IMG/VR virus record: IMGVR_UViG_3300015214_000029
Span: 1-64,000 of that record
Strand: one strand, 5' to 3'
DNA: 64,000 nt
DNA from: a virus
Lineage: Duplodnaviria; Caudoviricetes
Shown: piece after piece, positions 7,612-51,686 of the stretch
How positions within the stretch are numbered: the first letter of the stretch is position 1
Layout of the letters: the number at the start of each line of letters is the position of its first letter
Notes under the pieces: generated by a model
What the model was told of the DNA's origin: nothing
The model's input: only the letters and a program-made list of their open reading frames with translations
Database searches by the model: none
Position numbers and translations under genes: made by a program

Positions 7612-8529
7612 ATGGTTTGGGTTACACCTTCACTGCGGGGTGTGGAAGAGATTACGCCCGCCATCTGGAATCAGGATGTGGTGGAGAACTCTATCTACCT
7701 GCACAATCTCCTGGGCGGGCACAATGCGGTCGGGGGGCGGCTGACGGCTGTCAGCGGCACACCTCTTGGGGACGTTGAGGGAGCGAGCACTCTCTTTTTC
7801 ACCCCGTACATTCACGACCGGGTCCCAACCTGGGATGGGAATCGCTGGATCGTGCGGCAGTTCACCCAGGTGTCGATGTCCCTGCATGGACACGATGCCA
7901 ACAGGAACTATGACGTGTTCCTGGTCTGGGATGGTGTGAACTACTCCATGACCGATGTCGTCTGGACCAACGATACGACACGCGCGGTTTCTTTCGCCCG
8001 TTCGGGCGGGATGTTGGTAGACTCTTTACATCCCGACCGGCTCTTCCTGGGTACCTTCCGCACGCGCGGTGATGTAGCAACCCAGACCAATGACTCTCCC
8101 GGCTTCCGTATGATTTCCAACTACTTTAACCGGAGGCCCCGCCCCCTGTCAGCTGTCCTGGCGAACTCGGCGGGGACGGTCTCACAGACGACTGCGGAGA
8201 TTGCGACTGGCTTCCGGGTTCACTACGTGTCCTGCCGCACCGATAACTTTCTGGACATCTCCTGGATGGGCAGCTTCTATGACAGCACCAGCCGGGCCAA
8301 TAACTATCAGATGCGGAACAACAACGAGAATATTAAGGCAGTGATTTATCTGGGGGATCAGTCTGGGGCAAGCTCCAATCATGGGGCTCCGGTCCACCTG
8401 CGCTATGCTGGAATGGCCCCCCTGGGCTGGGAGTACATTAAGATCTACGGCTCGGCCTCTGCCAGCAACAGCTTCAAGTGGCAGATTTACGGCACGCCCA
8501 CCGGCACTGTCGGGTATATCTGGGGGTGA
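7612..8529 (+). CDS. Minor tail / receptor-binding-type protein
   Basis: Follows the Tal-like gene; 'GRLTAVSGTP...TLFFTPY' tail-protein-like block; its stop codon lies inside the adjacent IS end. Confidence 0.5.
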   Translation: MVWVTPSLRGVEEITPAIWNQDVVENSIYLHNLLGGHNAVGGRLTAVSGTPLGDVEGASTLFFTPYIHDRVPTWDGNRWIVRQFTQVSMSLHGHDANRNYDVFLVWDGVNYSMTDVVWTNDTTRAVSFARSGGMLVDSLHPDRLFLGTFRTRGDVATQTNDSPGFRMISNYFNRRPRPLSAVLANSAGTVSQTTAEIATGFRVHYVSCRTDNFLDISWMGSFYDSTSRANNYQMRNNNENIKAVIYLGDQSGASSNHGAPVHLRYAGMAPLGWEYIKIYGSASASNSFKWQIYGTPTGTVGYIWG

Positions 8530-9777
8530 CTACTCTCCCCCCTGAAGAGGGGAGCTTTTAGGGGTCTAGCCCCACAGCCGATAGCCCTCGGCTGAGAATG
8601 TTCAAAGCGGCGTTTTGGTCGCGGTCCATGACGATGCCGCAGTGAGGACAATTATGCGTGCGAACCGACAGGTCTTTGCGGACAATCTCACCACAACCGG
8701 AACACAACTGCGTCGTGTTTCTGGGGTCAACCTGTGCAAAACCGCGCCCGGCTCCCTCCGCCTTGTACGCGGTGAACTGCACAAACTGCGCCCATGCCAC
8801 GTCCGCAATGCCCCGGTTGATGCTCTTGAAGTTGTCCTGCTGCATGTCGGCGATGTCCAGCTTCTCGAACGCGAGGAACTGGTATTCGTTCACGAGCCGT
8901 CTGCTCCACTGGTGAGCGAAGTCTCGGCGGCGGTTGGCGATGCGCTTATGCGCGTGCCGCAAAGCCCTGACCGCCTTACGTCGCTCCGGTGTCCCCTTTT
9001 CGAGGCGCGACACCCGGCGTTGCAGGCGTTTGAGGTCTTTCTCATCGCGCTGCACCCATCGCTGGCGGGGGATGCGCTCGCCGTTGCTCAGCACAGCGAA
9101 GGTCGTCAGGCCGAGGTCAACGCCCGCCACCCTGTCCGTTGGCGGCAGCAGGTCAGGTTCTACGATGCAGGAGAAGCAGGCGTACCAATTGCCGAGCGCG
9201 TCCCGCCGGATGGTCAGCGTTTTGCACTCACCCCGGAGCGGGCGATGCAGCCTGATCCGCACGTCACCGACCTTCGACAGGCGCACCCGCCCGTTGTCAA
9301 GGAAGCGCCAGTTGCCCTTCTCCTGCGGGTACGTAAAGCTGTCGTATCGGCGGTGCGACTTGAAGCGCGGGTATCCCGCCTTGCCGTTCTGTTCCTTCAC
9401 CCGCTGGAAGAAGGCGCGGAGTGCGAGGTCAGCCCGCTTCTGCGCTTCCTGCATGGCCTGTGCGTGGCCCTGCTGGAGCCACTCGGTTTCCGGCTCCCGC
9501 TTCCACTGGGTCAACAGCTTGTTCGTGTCATAGCGGGAAAGCGACCGCTGTTCGTCCTGCCACGCATCACGCCGGACTTCCAGCGTTTTGTTGTATACCC
9601 AGCGGCAAGCGTCAAGCTGGGCTTGCAGGGCGGTCCGCTGCGCGGCTGTCGGAAACAGGCGGTGCTTAAAGGTCATTCGCATATCCTAATTATACCCGAA
9701 TATCTACACAGCGCAACATGCTGTGTAGCCGCTATTCACCTCCCCACTAAAGTGGGGAGCACTCTAGCGGAGGTTCT
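8526..9777 (-). mobile_element. IS200/IS605-family element (IS1341-type, tnpB only), element A
   Basis: On the - strand: left end AGAACC..AGTG-CTCCCC-actttagt-GGGGAG, right end AAAG-CTCCCC..GGGGAG-AGTAGTCAC; target motif CTAC precedes the left end; no tnpA. Confidence 0.88.
8558..9682 (-). CDS. tnpB: TnpB RNA-guided endonuclease
   Basis: HTH_OrfB N-terminus 'FKHRLFPT', RuvC 'GVDLG', 'AFEKL' and 'DRDQNAALNI', Zn ribbon CSGC..CPHC; catalytic D/E/D intact. Confidence 0.95.
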   Translation of the reverse strand: MRMTFKHRLFPTAAQRTALQAQLDACRWVYNKTLEVRRDAWQDEQRSLSRYDTNKLLTQWKREPETEWLQQGHAQAMQEAQKRADLALRAFFQRVKEQNGKAGYPRFKSHRRYDSFTYPQEKGNWRFLDNGRVRLSKVGDVRIRLHRPLRGECKTLTIRRDALGNWYACFSCIVEPDLLPPTDRVAGVDLGLTTFAVLSNGERIPRQRWVQRDEKDLKRLQRRVSRLEKGTPERRKAVRALRHAHKRIANRRRDFAHQWSRRLVNEYQFLAFEKLDIADMQQDNFKSINRGIADVAWAQFVQFTAYKAEGAGRGFAQVDPRNTTQLCSGCGEIVRKDLSVRTHNCPHCGIVMDRDQNAALNILSRGLSAVGLDP

Positions 9778-35394: not shown

Positions 35395-35745
35395 TCAGGC
35401 CCCCCGGTAGCGGTCCTCGCCGTGCCCCTCGCCGTCGATCAGCCCGGCGCTCGCCCGCTGGTTCAGCCGGTACAGCAGATGGGCAGCGGCATCCTCTAAA
35501 GTAACCCCGAGATCCGTGATGCCCTGGACCACCGCCCAGAGCACATCTTCTAACTCTTCCAGCAGCCGCTCCCGATTCTCGGGCGAGACCACAAAGGGCA
35601 CCGGTTCGCGCCGCATCTGTTTATTGAGGATGCGCTGGGTCTCGCCCGCTTCCTCGACCAGCAGGGCAACCGGGTAGATGACCTGGTTCTCGTCCGGGTA
35701 GATGGCTGTCTCTGCCACCCGCCGCTGTAAGTCGTTGAGTTCCAT
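35395..35745 (-). CDS. mazG: MazG-like nucleotide pyrophosphohydrolase
   Basis: 'LVEEAGE..K' and 'LLEELEDVLWAV' (EExxE...ExxD). Confidence 0.8.
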   Translation of the reverse strand: MELNDLQRRVAETAIYPDENQVIYPVALLVEEAGETQRILNKQMRREPVPFVVSPENRERLLEELEDVLWAVVQGITDLGVTLEDAAAHLLYRLNQRASAGLIDGEGHGEDRYRGA

Positions 35746-35772
35746 AGAATTTGCGGCAGGGTACTCCCCGTT

Positions 35773-36441
35773 TTAACGGGGAGGGGAATGCCGCCTTCCT
35801 CCTTTTGCGCTTCTCACGATGTGGTGCATCACCTGCCGCCCGAGAAATTCGCTGTACGCGGGCGGGATGGCTTGCGCGGTCTCGCGCTGCGTCATGTACC
35901 AGTCGATGCCCATTGCCGCCCGCCCCTCCGCTACCCCGCTGAAATGGCCGAAGATGCTCCACACCTCGCCCTCGTCCTGCGGCTGGCGTCCGGTGCGCGG
36001 TGCCCGCAACCCCAGCGCCTTGTGCGAAACGTGCTCGGGTGCTACCAGCGGCAGGTTGCTCTCGAAGTAGCGATGCCGGAACATCCGCAGTCCGAACATC
36101 GTGCCGCACAGCATCACAGGGTTGTGCAGCGGTGCGCCTGCTACGTTCTCAATAATGTACGGCTTGCCGCTATCCACGAGCAGCGCCCGCGCTGCCGCTA
36201 CCAGGTCGGGGTACTCGTTGCCGAGTACGTTATTCAGCGACGTATACGCCTGGCACGGCGGGCTTGCCCAGATGAGGTCAAATGTGCCGAGGTCGAGCGG
36301 CGGGCGTAGCGCGTCGCCCCGCACGAAGGCGAACGGGTAGTTCGGCTGGTTGCCAATATCGACACCCACGACCTCGAAGCCCGCCATGTGCAGGCCCATC
36401 GCCGCGCCGCCCGCGCCGCAGAACAAGTCCAGCGCCTTCAT
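35773..36441 (-). CDS. DNA cytosine-5 methyltransferase (short phage type), cargo of element B
   Basis: Motif I 'LDLFCGAGG', IV 'ASPPCQ', VI 'IIENV', VIII 'RHRYFE', X 'QAIPPAYSEFLG'; stop codon lies within the IS left-end hairpin. Confidence 0.9.
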   Translation of the reverse strand: MKALDLFCGAGGAAMGLHMAGFEVVGVDIGNQPNYPFAFVRGDALRPPLDLGTFDLIWASPPCQAYTSLNNVLGNEYPDLVAAARALLVDSGKPYIIENVAGAPLHNPVMLCGTMFGLRMFRHRYFESNLPLVAPEHVSHKALGLRAPRTGRQPQDEGEVWSIFGHFSGVAEGRAAMGIDWYMTQRETAQAIPPAYSEFLGRQVMHHIVRSAKGGRRHSPPR

Positions 36442-36504
36442 CTCACGCCACCGCCAGCTGCGTGTACGTAGAACAAAAGTGCGCGTTGACCATGTTATCC
36501 CTCT

Positions 36505-36606
36505 CTGAATATTCTCTCCGCCGGGACGCGGCCCCCAGACGCTAACGTGGGCCACGATGCCGTGCGTAGTCTGGGAAGCTCCCCCTTTAAGGGGGAGAGC
36601 CGTCAC
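36505..36606 (+). ncRNA. Retained 3' tnpB/omega-RNA scaffold segment
   Basis: Translates as LNILSAGTRPPDANVGHDAVRSLGSSPF, nearly identical to the TnpB C-terminus at 50218-50303; guide would be the flank CAGAGCTCCATG. Confidence 0.6.
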
Positions 36607-36803
36607 CAGAGCTCCATGTCTTCGGGGTCTGCCTTGACCCCTGCCGGACAGCAGCAGCGTCGCCAGTAAGCCCGGCCCCAGTAACAAGTTGTTAGTTCTT
36701 CAGTTGCCGGGTAGAGTTCGACCAGATAGGTGCCCCGCCCGCCACACTCGCACGAACAGGGGTCCTCTTCCTCTACCGGCCGCCCATCTACCCAAACAGT
36801 CAT
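36603..36803 (-). CDS. Small Cys-rich hypothetical protein
   Basis: CSCEC..C..CCC; last codons W-stop completed by the IS right end. Confidence 0.5.
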   Translation of the reverse strand: MTVWVDGRPVEEEDPCSCECGGRGTYLVELYPATEELTTCYWGRAYWRRCCCPAGVKADPEDMELW

Positions 36804-48666: not shown

Positions 48667-48957
48667 TTACTTAAACCAATCCATGTCAACATGGTTGACG
48701 TACAGCTTGCCGCTGGGCATCCGCTCGTTGCGGATCACCTCCAAACCCAGCAGGGTATCCGGCAGGTCCTCGATCCCGTGCGGGTTGACCAACAGGTGAG
48801 TCGGCTTGCGGTAGTACCGCTTCTCAAACTGGCGGATGGCTCGCCGGGTCTCATCGGTGATGATCTCCAGGCTCGACCCCCGCTGACTGAAGCTGCGAAC
48901 GATCCCGCTGAACTTGAGATCCTGGGTGCCCACTGCCGGGCGTCGCTTTAGGTCCAT
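48667..48957 (-). CDS. Hypothetical protein, paralog of 34417-34629
   Basis: Shared RA..F/Y..KY..P...VHP/VNP..GLE pattern; start codon abuts the IS left end. Confidence 0.55.
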   Translation of the reverse strand: MDLKRRPAVGTQDLKFSGIVRSFSQRGSSLEIITDETRRAIRQFEKRYYRKPTHLLVNPHGIEDLPDTLLGLEVIRNERMPSGKLYVNHVDMDWFK

Positions 48958-50319
48958 AGAATTTGCGGCAGGGTACTCCCCGTTTTAACGGGGAGGGGAA
49001 TGCCGCCTTCCTCCTTTTGCGCTCCTCAGAAATGTGGTATAATTCGTTTGTCTAGGAACGGTACCCGTGAGCGGATTTTTGCTTTATGGCCCCCAAAGGC
49101 ACGGGTGTTCCTAGACACAACACCGCAGGCCTGCGGGGGTCGCCGCTTTTTGAGGGTACGATGATCCGCACCTACAAGCACCGGCTGTACCCGACGCCCG
49201 ATCAGGAAGTCGTGATGCACGACATCCTGTGGGCGGGCTGTTGGCTGTACAACCGGGCGCTCGACTACCGCCGCCGTCGCTGGTACGAGAGCCGCCACAG
49301 CGTCAGCTACTACGAGCAGGCGGGCATGTGGCGCGACTGGCGCAACGAGCAGCCAGACGATAACCCGCTGCGCGTCCTCAACATGAGCGCCGGTCAGCAA
49401 GTTCTGCGCCGCCTCGACAACACCTACCGCGAGTTCTTCAAGGGCAAGCGGGGCAGGCCCCGCTTCAAGCGCCACGACCGCTTCAACAGCGTCAACTTCA
49501 AGCCGGGCGACGGGGCCGCCCTCAAGGGCCGCAAGCTGTACCTGCAAAACGTTGGCCTCGTCACTGTGCGCTGGCACCGCAGCCTGCCCGACGAAGCGAA
49601 GCTCAAGAACATCATCCTGCTGCGCAAGCCGTCCGGCTGGTACGTGCTGCTGCAAGTTGATCTGCCTGATGTCGAGCCGGAGCCAAGCGACAAGCCCGCC
49701 ATTGGGATCGATGTGGGTATTCACCACGCTCTCGCTCTTTCCGATGGCACGATCATCGACAGCCCCAAGTACCTTGAGCAGTCGCTCAAGAAGCTCCGCC
49801 GTCTCCAGCGCCGGGTCGCCCGTCGCAAGAAGGGCAGCAAGGGCTGGTGGCGGGCTGTGCATCAAGTCGCCAAACAGCATGAGCACATCGCCAACCAGCG
49901 CCGGGATTGGTGGCACAAAGTCACGACGTGGCTTGTGCAGAATTACGGCACTATCGCGCTTGAGGACTTGAACCTCAGCTTCCTGCTTCGCAACGGCAGT
50001 CTCGCACGCCACGCCCATGACGTGGGGTTGGGCATCTTCTACAAGCTTCTCGACTACAAGGCTATGGAGGCCGGAGTCGAGATCGTGAAGGTGAACCCCG
50101 CTTACACGTCGCAGGTGTGCAGCGAGTGCGGCTGTATTGTCGAGAAGAAGCTGAGTGAGCGCGAACACTGTTGTCCTCACTGCGGGTTTACAGCCGACAG
50201 GGATGTAAACGCCGCTCTGAACATTTTGTGGGCCGGGACGCGGCCCCCAGACGCTAACGTGAGCCACGAGGCTGTGCGTAGTCTGGGAAGCTCCCCCTTT
50301 TAAGGGGGAGAGCCGTCAC
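48958..50319 (+). mobile_element. IS200/IS605-family element (IS1341-type, tnpB only), element C
   Basis: Target CCAT; left end AGAATT..GGTA-CTCCCCG-tttt-aaCGGGGAG; right end GAAG-CTCCCCC-ttttaa-GGGGGAG-AGCCGTCAC; TGTGGTATAAT promoter box. Confidence 0.9.
49161..50303 (+). CDS. tnpB: TnpB RNA-guided endonuclease
   Basis: 'YKHRLYPT', RuvC 'GIDVG', 'ALEDL', 'DRDVNAALNI', CSEC..CPHC; alternative start at 49086. Confidence 0.95.
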   Translation: MIRTYKHRLYPTPDQEVVMHDILWAGCWLYNRALDYRRRRWYESRHSVSYYEQAGMWRDWRNEQPDDNPLRVLNMSAGQQVLRRLDNTYREFFKGKRGRPRFKRHDRFNSVNFKPGDGAALKGRKLYLQNVGLVTVRWHRSLPDEAKLKNIILLRKPSGWYVLLQVDLPDVEPEPSDKPAIGIDVGIHHALALSDGTIIDSPKYLEQSLKKLRRLQRRVARRKKGSKGWWRAVHQVAKQHEHIANQRRDWWHKVTTWLVQNYGTIALEDLNLSFLLRNGSLARHAHDVGLGIFYKLLDYKAMEAGVEIVKVNPAYTSQVCSECGCIVEKKLSEREHCCPHCGFTADRDVNAALNILWAGTRPPDANVSHEAVRSLGSSPF

Positions 50320-51686
50320 CAGAAACCCCCGAGTTTGGCTGAGGCTTTATCCCCCCAGCGTTTGAGGACCCCCGCCAACTGGCGGAAGTCGGTGACCTGG
50401 TACAGGTCATCACCCATCAGCAGCCACTCCTTCGGCGTGAAGGTCGGGTGTGGGGCCTGCAAGCAGAGCATCTGAAGGGTGTGGGATACCCGGGCGCGGA
50501 TTGCACTCGGGTCGTCATCCTGGAAGGTGGCCCGGGCTGCTTCCGCCACTATCTGCATAATTTTGTATGCACTTTCCGGGTCCCCCTGCGCCACCGACTC
50601 CAGCATCAGCCGACAGTTCGTCACCTGACCGGCGTCCAGCAGGTACAGGAACCCCTTATCATCTCTCAGCACCATCTTGACGAACTCCCTCGGGGTACCC
50701 CCCGCTCGTCTAAAGTCCGTATAATCCTTCCCCGCCATCTCCCGGGGGAAGTAGCGCACCTCACCGCCCAGTAGTTCCGCCAACGCTTGCGCGTGGACGT
50801 GCTCGCTCGGGGTACTGTCCGGCACGATCACAACGCGCCGGGTCCCGGCCAGCCGCCTGCGCAGGTCCATTGACTCCACCCGGTCCGGGTTGCCGAAAAC
50901 CGAAGCCCCGTTGGGCGAGAATGCAGGCAGTCCATCCTGCTCCGCCAGTAATTGATCGAATGTCCCAATCAACCCGATCATGTAATCCGGATTGACCAGG
51001 TGTGAGCCGACGATGAACGGACGGTTGTGCCCAGCGTGCCCCACGTAGTGCCAGTTGGGTCCCGCTATAGGCGGGGACTCTGGCGTGCTCCGGTATTGTA
51101 GGGTCACCACCTCACTGTGGCGGGGAACCCCATCCCAGAAAGGTACAACATAGGCTTTATAGTCCGGTCGCCAGCCCAGCAGGTTCCGATCAATCGTCTC
51201 ATCCGTCAGCAGGCGGGCCTCATACAGCCAGGTTCGGCGGTCCGGGGTCAATTCCCGGTGCCAGTAGTCGATCCACTTGCGGGGCACCGGCCCCTTGTAG
51301 TCCGCTGACGTGCGGCGACTGGCGTAAGCGACGGTCTCCAGAGCCGGAAAGCTGCCGAGGTGATCGGTGATGAACTGGACGGCATCAGGAAACGTGCAGC
51401 CTTCCATCTTCATCACATAATCAAACATATCAAACGCCTTGCGACAGGTAAAACAATACGCCCCATCCGCATAGATGTGCAGATTGGGCGTTCGTTTATC
51501 GTTGTGCCACAGGCAGTGAACCTTGCCCCCCTTCTCGATGGAAGTGTAGAGGCTGACCACCTGGGGCATCGACACCGTCTCACGCAGATAATCTAACTGC
51601 GAGCGTTCGATGTGTTGAAACTCACCCTCGGTCGGCGGCTGGTAGTTCTGGAGTTCTGGGTCATGGATGTCGAAGACATTGGACAT
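50316..51686 (-). CDS. DNA primase (CHC2 zinc finger + TOPRIM-like)
   Basis: 'CLWHND', 'YCFTC', 'VVIVPD', 'GKDYTD'; last W-stop completed by the IS end. Confidence 0.75.
   Translation of the reverse strand: MSNVFDIHDPELQNYQPPTEGEFQHIERSQLDYLRETVSMPQVVSLYTSIEKGGKVHCLWHNDKRTPNLHIYADGAYCFTCRKAFDMFDYVMKMEGCTFPDAVQFITDHLGSFPALETVAYASRRTSADYKGPVPRKWIDYWHRELTPDRRTWLYEARLLTDETIDRNLLGWRPDYKAYVVPFWDGVPRHSEVVTLQYRSTPESPPIAGPNWHYVGHAGHNRPFIVGSHLVNPDYMIGLIGTFDQLLAEQDGLPAFSPNGASVFGNPDRVESMDLRRRLAGTRRVVIVPDSTPSEHVHAQALAELLGGEVRYFPREMAGKDYTDFRRAGGTPREFVKMVLRDDKGFLYLLDAGQVTNCRLMLESVAQGDPESAYKIMQIVAEAARATFQDDDPSAIRARVSHTLQMLCLQAPHPTFTPKEWLLMGDDLYQVTDFRQLAGVLKRWGDKASAKLGGFW

Follow-up and report, generated by a model that had tools for sequence, protein, structure and literature searches.

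A phage-type C5 DNA methyltransferase gene occupies the place of tnpB between IS200/IS605 ends, probably as the passenger of a non-autonomous element

We analysed a 64,000-nt stretch of phage DNA (the window), taken from the start of an IMG/VR virus record (IMGVR_UViG_3300015214_000029; Caudoviricetes) that is 85,755 bp long and has direct terminal repeats. It harbours an 861-bp element (element B, 35746-36606) with the ends of an IS200/IS605-type insertion sequence (IS) and, between them, a gene for a C5 DNA methyltransferase. The TnpB of a full-length relative (element C) sits 13.7 kb from it. We consider B to be probably a non-autonomous Chloroflexota IS200/IS605 shell with a methyltransferase passenger, inserted as a unit after a CCAT target. 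The two elements comprise the following features:

35742-35745, plus strand: CCAT target site and predicted transposon-adjacent motif (TAM) of TnpB; it is the reverse complement of ATGG, i.e. the start codon of a MazG-like gene plus one base.
35746-35825, plus strand: left end of B, with a hairpin stem (35764-35770 / 35777-35783); its 3' limit is the microhomology ATGTGGT.
35773-36441, minus strand: gene for a short C5 DNA methyltransferase of 222 aa (PF00145 N-terminal half, phrog_363), co-oriented with the phage operon.
35827-36499, no strand assigned: replacing segment of 673 bp, made up of a 58-nt leader (36442-36499) and, after it in the reading direction of the gene, methyltransferase codons 1 to ~205.
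36500-36606, plus strand: retained right end, with the last 31 tnpB codons, a hairpin (36579-36597) and the terminal TCAC (36603-36606).
36515-36606, plus strand: omega-RNA scaffold of B, consisting of helices P1, P2, P2a and P3 and the terminal hairpin P4; GACG in the P1 loop forms a pseudoknot with CGTC in the 3' tail.
48958-50319, plus strand: element C, full-length and tnpB-only (1,362 bp), with tnpB at 49161-50300 and its omega-RNA scaffold at 50227-50319.

The initial annotation, made from the letters of the window, had proposed that B and C share their left end, CCAT target and TCAC right end, and this was borne out by alignments, by blastn and by relatives at other sites. The left ends are 96% identical over 82 nt (35735-35816 versus 48947-49028) and the right ends 89-97% identical over 36500-36610 versus 50212-50323 (95% and 91%, respectively, by blastn), the common parts being ~75 nt on the left and 107 nt on the right. 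CCAT lies directly 5' of both elements (48954-48957 in C), and both terminate in TCAC (50316-50319 in C). The boundaries were fixed by two relatives on IMG/VR contigs (L094 and L096), which start after CCAT, end in TCAC and have unrelated flanks. Both ends of B carry subterminal hairpins (common to C and the relatives) and lack terminal inverted repeats. Insertion 3' of CCAT, without target-site duplication and with unrelated right flanks, was recorded for B, C, L094, L096 and the 23 distinct sites of the mini-elements described below. Judging from their sequence, both TnpA-type ends of B are intact and a host TnpA could move the unit.

Between these ends, the segment 35827-36499 stands in place of the promoter -10 box, the leader and tnpB codons 1-349 of C, and the alignments found in it no homology to that element; the replacement of the tnpB interior, placed at ~35826-36504 beforehand, is hence real and only its limits moved. 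The left joint is a 7-nt microhomology, ATGTGGT (35819-35825), which doubles as the His-Ile codons of the methyltransferase and as the 5' part of the TGTGGTATAAT box of C. This box is otherwise absent from B, as had been noticed when the loss of the tnpB -10 box was first described. Homology to C picks up again at 36500, leaving 58 nt of non-IS leader between the joint and the methyltransferase ATG, and the 31 retained tnpB codons are 81% identical to residues 350-380 of C's TnpB. The right end of B is 95% identical to an orphan module of a Chloroflexota metagenome-assembled genome (MAG; L113), and its break-point, 20 nt upstream of P1, has a similar place in L113 and in gene-less relatives. 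Because its ends differ by 4-9% from those of C and carry L113-like features, B is not a recent copy of C.

The methyltransferase open reading frame (ORF) runs from an ATG at 36441 to a TAA (35773-35775) inside the loop of the left-end hairpin. Its Pfam match to PF00145 covers motifs I-VI, in the N-terminal half of the protein only, and motifs I (FCGAGG, i.e. FxGxG), IV (SPPCQ, i.e. PCQ with the catalytic Cys) and VI (IIENV, i.e. ENV) are invariant or nearly so in 54 homologues. An AlphaFold2 model (predicted local distance difference test score 95.6), whose best structural matches were the catalytic domains of DNMT3A/3B and M.HaeIII (E ~1e-9, template modelling score 0.65), predicts that the methyltransferase fold spans the whole protein. 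Homologues number thousands of phage and metagenome proteins of 200-230 aa; identity is 43-52% to 80 IMG/VR loci and reaches 91% for one metagenome protein (P0002). They stop shortly past ..AIPPAYSEFLGRQ and have variable tails. The closest of them, P0002, runs on ..VERHIAGKPL.., whereas the element B protein runs on ..VMHHIVRSAKGGRRHSPPR, its last 14 codons plus the stop being left-end DNA that replaces the native tail. This tail is what the left end encodes on its reverse strand, and the left end of C yields the same 15 residues. Thus, of the 'intact' antisense C5-methyltransferase with a stop in the left hairpin that had been annotated here, the orientation and the stop stand, while intactness holds for the catalytic core and not for the last 14 residues. 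The protein shares its size class (~205-225 aa) and motifs I, IV (PCQ) and VI (ENV) with the short phage C5 methyltransferases (phrog_363, e.g. mycobacteriophage Pukovnik gp82, 'DNA methyltransferase'), from which it differs in being the only copy inside IS ends and with a left-end-encoded tail. No paralogue was found in the phage, and the base composition and GC content at third codon positions of the cargo showed no departure from other phage genes.

The element is flanked by two genes of the phage:

35395-35745, minus strand: MazG-like pyrophosphatase gene (Pfam and PHROG matches), directly downstream of B.
36603-36803, minus strand: Cys-rich phage gene of 66 aa, whose last codon (Trp) is split by the boundary (TG from the flank, the third base, G, from the right end) and whose stop comes from the right end.

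Deleting B in silico gives, on the gene strand, ..GAG CTC TGA TGG AAC.., so that the 66-aa gene ends in ..EL and overlaps the MazG start as TGATG. Deletion of C yields the same form (..GGT TTC TGA TGG ACC..) between the primase and a 96-aa gene; in both cases, the TCAC end of the element adds one Trp plus a new stop to the flanking gene. Since the ATG of the 66-aa gene in turn overlaps the stop of a 118-aa gene as ATGA (36800-36803), the ancestral arrangement would have been a chain of translationally coupled small genes, interrupted by B. With B present, no Shine-Dalgarno-like sequence lies near the ATG of the MazG-like gene.

Natural variants of the flanking proteins were taken from 90%-identity protein clusters of other public assemblies and read as protein only. 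A variant of the 66-aa protein (P0123; 3 contigs, the longest of 5,344 bp) has 65 aa and ends in ..MEL, without the terminal Trp. A MazG variant (P0128, 117 aa; 4 contigs, the longest also of 5,344 bp) starts with MMELND, i.e. has an extra start codon before the ATG, which fits CT[A/G/T] TGA TGG (the left end of B would put TCT there). Together, the two fit an empty site of the form CTN TGA TGG, and at the protein level the flanks of B are 98-100% identical to this empty allele. At C, a 99% identical primase variant (P0130, 455 aa, on an 8,945-bp contig) ends in ..GGF instead of the ..GGFW found with the element. As these variants have exactly the predicted empty-site form, B and C appear to be recent and precise presence/absence polymorphisms among near-identical phages. 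A third allele of the 66-aa protein (P0122) ends in ..MELF, which is neither the B-bearing (..MELW) nor the empty (..MEL) form.

The TnpB of element C (380 aa) has helix-turn-helix (HTH), OrfB_IS605 (Pfam) and Cas12f1-like TNB domains and conserves the RuvC D-E-D residues. Its genome matches (49-76% identity) were all from Chloroflexota (18 of 18), mostly MAGs of Anaerolineae. Several relatives carry a Y1 transposase (TnpA) of the IS200 type directly upstream of tnpB (PF01797, E 4e-41 and 3e-34 in L109 and L106), and these TnpA-bearing forms have the left-end design of B and C (CCAT, AGAA.TT..GCGGCAGGG.AC, a hairpin and GGGGAATGCCGC). Given this transposase and the common left end, the lineage is an ordinary IS200/IS605 family, whose members may be autonomous, tnpB-only or gene-less. 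No Y1 transposase was found in the phage genome.

The gene-less forms were best seen in the 6.4-Mb genome of a Phototrophicaceae MAG (G002, the genome of L102), where the omega-RNA model had 54 matches, about half of them without tnpB. The tnpB-free matches include at least 22 mobile, gene-less mini-elements at differing loci (e.g. L125:1238-1594 and L128:1238-1594), sized at 380-402 bp in one tally and at 353-402 bp in another, which consist of CCAT, the left end, an extended -10 promoter (TGTGCTAAAAT-type), a short leader, the full scaffold and TCAC. Using a pattern that did not demand CCAT, 23 distinct insertion sites were collected; all of them followed CCAT and were T-rich at -5 and -6. 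The same genome has more than 150 tnpB matches, many of which are fragments. No cargo gene was found in the tnpB-less elements examined in it, and neither six tnpB-less modules for which the left-end pattern had no match within 3 kb nor one 634-bp element held a clear cargo. Since these mini-elements carry both, the gene-less derivatives of the lineage keep promoter and scaffold; that gene-less relatives always keep the scaffold suggests that it matters for tnpB-less elements.

The orphan module mentioned above (L121/L113:590-694, in JAKOVD010000060.1) is an omega-RNA/right-end module that scored 105 bits and has no tnpB upstream; the short contig does not reach far enough to reveal any left end. 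It was considered as a second cargo shell and dropped, as weak tnpB similarity upstream pointed to a decayed copy. An ORF of 166 aa with a repeated DEWHL.CAHVNTAPPP motif lies on its 5' side, and a tRNA-like 3' half, an excisionase-like HTH ORF and another tnpB on its 3' side. In a further Chloroflexota MAG contig (L097:2179-2409, JAKOVD010000036.1), a TnpB 76% identical to that of C is followed by an omega-RNA-like scaffold (68.9 bits) and then by three 28-nt direct repeats (GTTAACCCCACGCGAGTGTGGGCGTCAC) with a 62-nt period and 34-nt unique spacers. Each repeat ends in CGTCAC, i.e. the pseudoknot strand plus the terminus. From its sequence this locus looks like a tnpB-linked CRISPR-like mini-array, for which the TranC systems and the tnpB-CRISPR loci of Thermus Lalka phages offer a comparison (PMC11437467).

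We derived the structure of the omega-RNA from the last 91-110 nt of 14 copies, with B left out. In these relatives RNAalifold recovered four helices and the terminal hairpin (28 nested pairs, 21 with compensatory changes), to which we added a pseudoknot that pairs GACG of the P1 loop with CGTC, the four bases preceding the terminal AC. This pseudoknot is paired in 14 of 14 copies, and covariation is seen at two of its four positions (from GACG/CGTC to GATA/TATC, GACA/TGTC and GACT/AGTC); with it included, 23 of the 32 pairs show changes on both sides. Over the whole structure, 96.4% of the cells pair, as compared with 77.4% in shuffles (none of 500 as high) and 36-46% with slid partners. The module ends at TCAC in all 17 aligned copies, and the scaffold measures ~90 nt in this lineage; because the copies diverge or carry insertions 5' of P1, the 107 nt retained in B contain all of it. 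Thus, the earlier claim that B keeps the last ~100 nt of tnpB together with the omega-RNA is upheld, and the accompanying worry that a scaffold of ~100 nt might be too short is answered, as the whole covarying structure (pseudoknot included) lies within. The architecture agrees with that of the ISDra2 omega-RNA, for which a scaffold of 116 nt is enough and in which a guide-adjacent pseudoknot stacks on stem 1 (PMC10097598).

A covariance model trained without B gave 104.5 bits for C and 80.3 bits for B, over the full length of the latter (36515-36606, E 7e-15); this score falls within the range of the tnpB-linked copies outside model training (66-82 bits). The 5' half of the B module is like the L113 orphan module, and the 3' strand of its P1 is like C. 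No matching family for the region was found in Rfam. The guide-RNA part of B is complete in extent and probably recognisable by C's TnpB, though weakened and without its native promoter. Two further features were assigned around the scaffold:

36486-36513, plus strand: candidate sigma-70-like promoter, TTGACC-16-AATATT, across the cargo/IS joint, with 9 of 12 consensus matches.
36607-36622, plus strand: predicted 16-nt guide, CAGAGCTCCATGTCTT, assigned by position alone in analogy with ISDra2 (PMC10097598); it lies inside the 3' end of the opposite-strand 66-aa gene.

The consensus scan returned 3 promoter sites versus 0.6 expected in shuffles, and by consensus alone the junction site is a weak candidate; transcription from it would start ~7 nt downstream, at ~36520, the first paired base of B's shortened P1. 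Within the genome of the phage itself, no target composed of CCAT plus the guide was found. The right flanks of B (36607-36610) and C (50320-50323) are both CAGA; preceded by the terminal C, this resembles the 5' strand of P2 (CCAGAC), and in the single-sequence fold of B the flank pairs with the 3' strand of P2. That CAGA might be part of the element was ruled out by relatives with other flanks: its CA follows from the TGATG junction and its other two bases may be chance.

We envisage that a fragment with a phage-type C5 methyltransferase replaced the promoter and nearly all of the tnpB of B by illegitimate recombination, the left joint forming at the 7-nt microhomology, and that the 861-bp unit was inserted precisely after CCAT, in the TGATG overlap between the 66-aa gene and the MazG-like gene. 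Lying on the coding strand of the phage, the cargo would most likely be read through from the phage operon. The methyltransferase itself would most likely be the selected function (i.e. protective or epigenetic cytosine methylation), and a TnpA provided by the host could mobilise the unit through its ends. The omega-RNA of B, if transcribed, could load C's TnpB and direct it to CCAT plus CAGAGCTCCATGTCTT, that is, to the empty allele. That B arrived with its cargo already in place is a somewhat more economical assumption than in-situ capture, since B is not a recent copy of C and its flanks are nearly identical to the empty allele.

How far the guide is in use is a separate matter: use of B's RNA by TnpB is possible but weakened, and trans-homing by C's TnpB is plausible but unproven. 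The initial annotation had pictured an RNA-guided homing drive, and while the architecture it described stands, the drive itself stays conjectural and has points against it. That B is an active homing cargo, whose omega-RNA and C's TnpB cut empty alleles in co-infecting phages so that repair copies the anti-restriction gene in a super-Mendelian fashion, is in our view unlikely. It would be helped by the completeness of the scaffold (with pseudoknot, P2, P2a and P4 intact), by a cognate TnpB with a near-identical scaffold in the same genome, by a promoter-like site positioned to start at P1, by empty alleles in near-identical phages and by the constant retention of the scaffold in gene-less relatives; moreover, stand-alone omega-RNAs act in trans (PMC10691335) and TnpB-dependent plasmid spread without TnpA has been reported (PMC13565253). 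It is improbable, too, that B amounts to a natural split gene drive, in which the cargo is linked to the guide RNA only and the nuclease, C's TnpB, is encoded elsewhere and cuts insert-free sibling phages.

A number of observations weigh against a functional guide, and in part against B as a mobile cargo shell. In its scaffold three of the 32 pairs are broken (the two outer pairs of P1, of whose 6 pairs 4 are left, and the pair that closes the P3 loop), one further P3 pair is altered on both sides relative to C, and the majority of the changes that separate B from its nearest relatives (L113 and C) break pairs. For the scaffold alone, the consensus fold and the minimum free energy (MFE) are further apart in B (-37.4 versus -43.5 kcal/mol) than in C (-45.9 versus -47.2 kcal/mol); with 16 nt of flank, the MFE structure of B is predicted to misfold and lose P1-P3, whereas that of C still has P2-P4. 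The native promoter of the omega-RNA is gone, and only the weak junction match exists. The empty alleles, documented at the protein level only, would have to differ from the B flank at guide position 3, in the TAM-proximal seed, as deduced from protein N-termini. Furthermore, the suggested BLAST-type search for other cargo-bearing copies turned up none. The exact right-end hairpin pattern and both cargo/IS junction patterns had 0 matches in IMG/VR, the right-end pattern recovered 2 loci in the metagenomes of the Joint Genome Institute (JGI), both ordinary and tnpB-bearing, and the omega-RNA model had no match beside 80 IMG/VR phage methyltransferase loci or beside 3 methyltransferase homologues from 401 same-class genomes. 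No spread to other loci or phages was thus seen in these sets, and B is known from a single locus, the second assembly (ENA, protein P0126) being possibly of the same sample.

Such a record would also suit an inert relic, i.e. a tnpB-bearing copy that was inserted and later had its tnpB replaced in situ by the methyltransferase, so that the unit never moved as cargo and its RNA is unmade or unused. On this view, the ends and the RNA region would persist solely because the break-points of the recombination spared them and little time has passed. The single locus, the three broken pairs and the lost promoter agree with this history, the methyltransferase family is an ordinary phage gene elsewhere, and flanks 98-100% identical to the empty allele indicate an insertion so young that its intactness needs no selection. 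We nevertheless hold the relic to be rather unlikely, as it calls for two events (plus a methyltransferase donor) within the brief period after divergence from the empty allele, where arrival of a unit needs one; in addition, the ends of B are not those of a recent C copy, and its right break-point is of a kind also seen in L113 and in gene-less relatives. Far less probable is the scenario that the initial annotation had named as its refutation, in which the methyltransferase is ancestral and two IS copies, each truncated, landed on either side of it. Nothing specific speaks for it apart from CCAT being frequent (629 CCAT/ATGG sites in the genome), and it would require two insertions and two deletions; once B is removed, the flanking genes regain a TGATG overlap like the one at C, natural variants show exactly this empty-site form, and the C-terminal tail of the methyltransferase was replaced by left-end DNA through microhomology. 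An assembly chimera of IS ends with an unrelated methyltransferase contig is scarcely credible: although metagenome assemblies can be mis-joined at repeats, IS ends among them, those shared here are short (~80-107 nt), the flanking phage genes are continuous, and P0126, from an independent ENA assembly, reads across both joints: it begins at the terminus of the right end, passes through leader and methyltransferase and finishes in the left-end tail. The non-autonomous shell, inserted as a unit, thus remains the reading that we prefer.

Element B lies among genes that are on the minus strand throughout and include, besides the MazG-like pyrophosphatase, a DnaB-like helicase, a primase and an integrase. 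The host of the phage is most likely a member of Chloroflexota. No close phage relatives were found through the MazG-like neighbour (best identity 38%) or through the 118-aa gene. The record has three tnpB genes (8582-9676, minus strand; 49161-50300, plus strand; 72213-73046, minus strand), and also a 31-codon tnpB remnant (36496-36588). The elements at 8526-9700 (minus strand) and at 72213-73338 of the genome (beyond the window) belong to more distant lineages, with TnpB proteins 39% and 31% identical to that of C, and the former has an omega-like module of its own (41 bits with the covariance model at 8526-8597).

Viewed against known systems, element C is a standard member of the IS1341 (tnpB-only) and IS605 (ISDra2, IS608) types, having the same subterminal hairpins, a tetranucleotide 3' insertion without duplication, a right end fused to the omega-RNA and a guide-adjacent pseudoknot; B differs from these in having no nuclease gene. 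Relative to ISDra2, the scaffold of this lineage is shorter (~90 nt against 116 nt) and the target/TAM is CCAT. B also resembles the PATEs (palindrome-associated transposable elements) and PATE-like derivatives (Meers et al. 2023, PMC10055086; Altae-Tran et al. 2023, PMC10691335), which likewise lack tnpB and tnpA and keep the IS ends. Omega-RNAs for use in trans are often encoded by PATEs (PMC10055086), and compatible effectors can work with stand-alone omega-RNAs (PMC10691335); as in PATEs, the scaffold of B reaches the right boundary and a compatible TnpB is found elsewhere in the genome. However, PATEs are gene-less and, in this lineage, have a left-end promoter, while in B this promoter is lost and a gene of 222 codons lies on the opposite strand. 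By the strict definition (no protein-coding gene between the ends) B is PATE-like and not a PATE. Cargo is rare in IS200/IS605 elements (PMC10691335); the cargo-carrying IS200/IS605/IS607 elements also hold a passenger gene between IS200/IS605-type ends, yet there the reported cargo sits beside tnpB, whereas that of B replaces tnpB and is antisense to the omega-RNA. The logic proposed for homing is that of the free-standing homing endonuclease genes of T-even phages (intronless homing, marker exclusion) and of the proposed transposon 'non-restorative homing' into co-infecting phages or plasmids (PMC13565253): the insert-free allele is cut and repair copies the insert together with the linked gene. 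For B, this is a proposal, and it departs from these systems in that the nuclease would be 13.7 kb away and the guide alone would be linked to the cargo. Taken together, B is a rare, uncommon architecture, of which the components and the trans principle have already been described.

To our knowledge, IS200/IS605 elements have long been held to carry no cargo, and we know of guide-RNA-keeping tnpB-less derivatives only as gene-less mini-elements. Against this background, B would show that a module of guide plus ends can be a vehicle for other genes. Because natural empty alleles exist, the homing idea is directly testable, and with its 90-nt scaffold, 380-aa TnpB, CCAT TAM and known empty allele, the locus is a small system for asking whether TnpB acting in trans drives a linked cargo through a phage population. 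Were B a split drive, the putative synonymous difference at guide position 3 in the empty alleles would represent a drive-resistant allele. For those who mine for TnpB systems, this Chloroflexota lineage may, in addition, be of interest on account of its compact covarying scaffold and its CCAT TAM. Even if its RNA is dead, B would still be a clean example of how phages gain genes by microhomology recombination inside resident insertion sequences.

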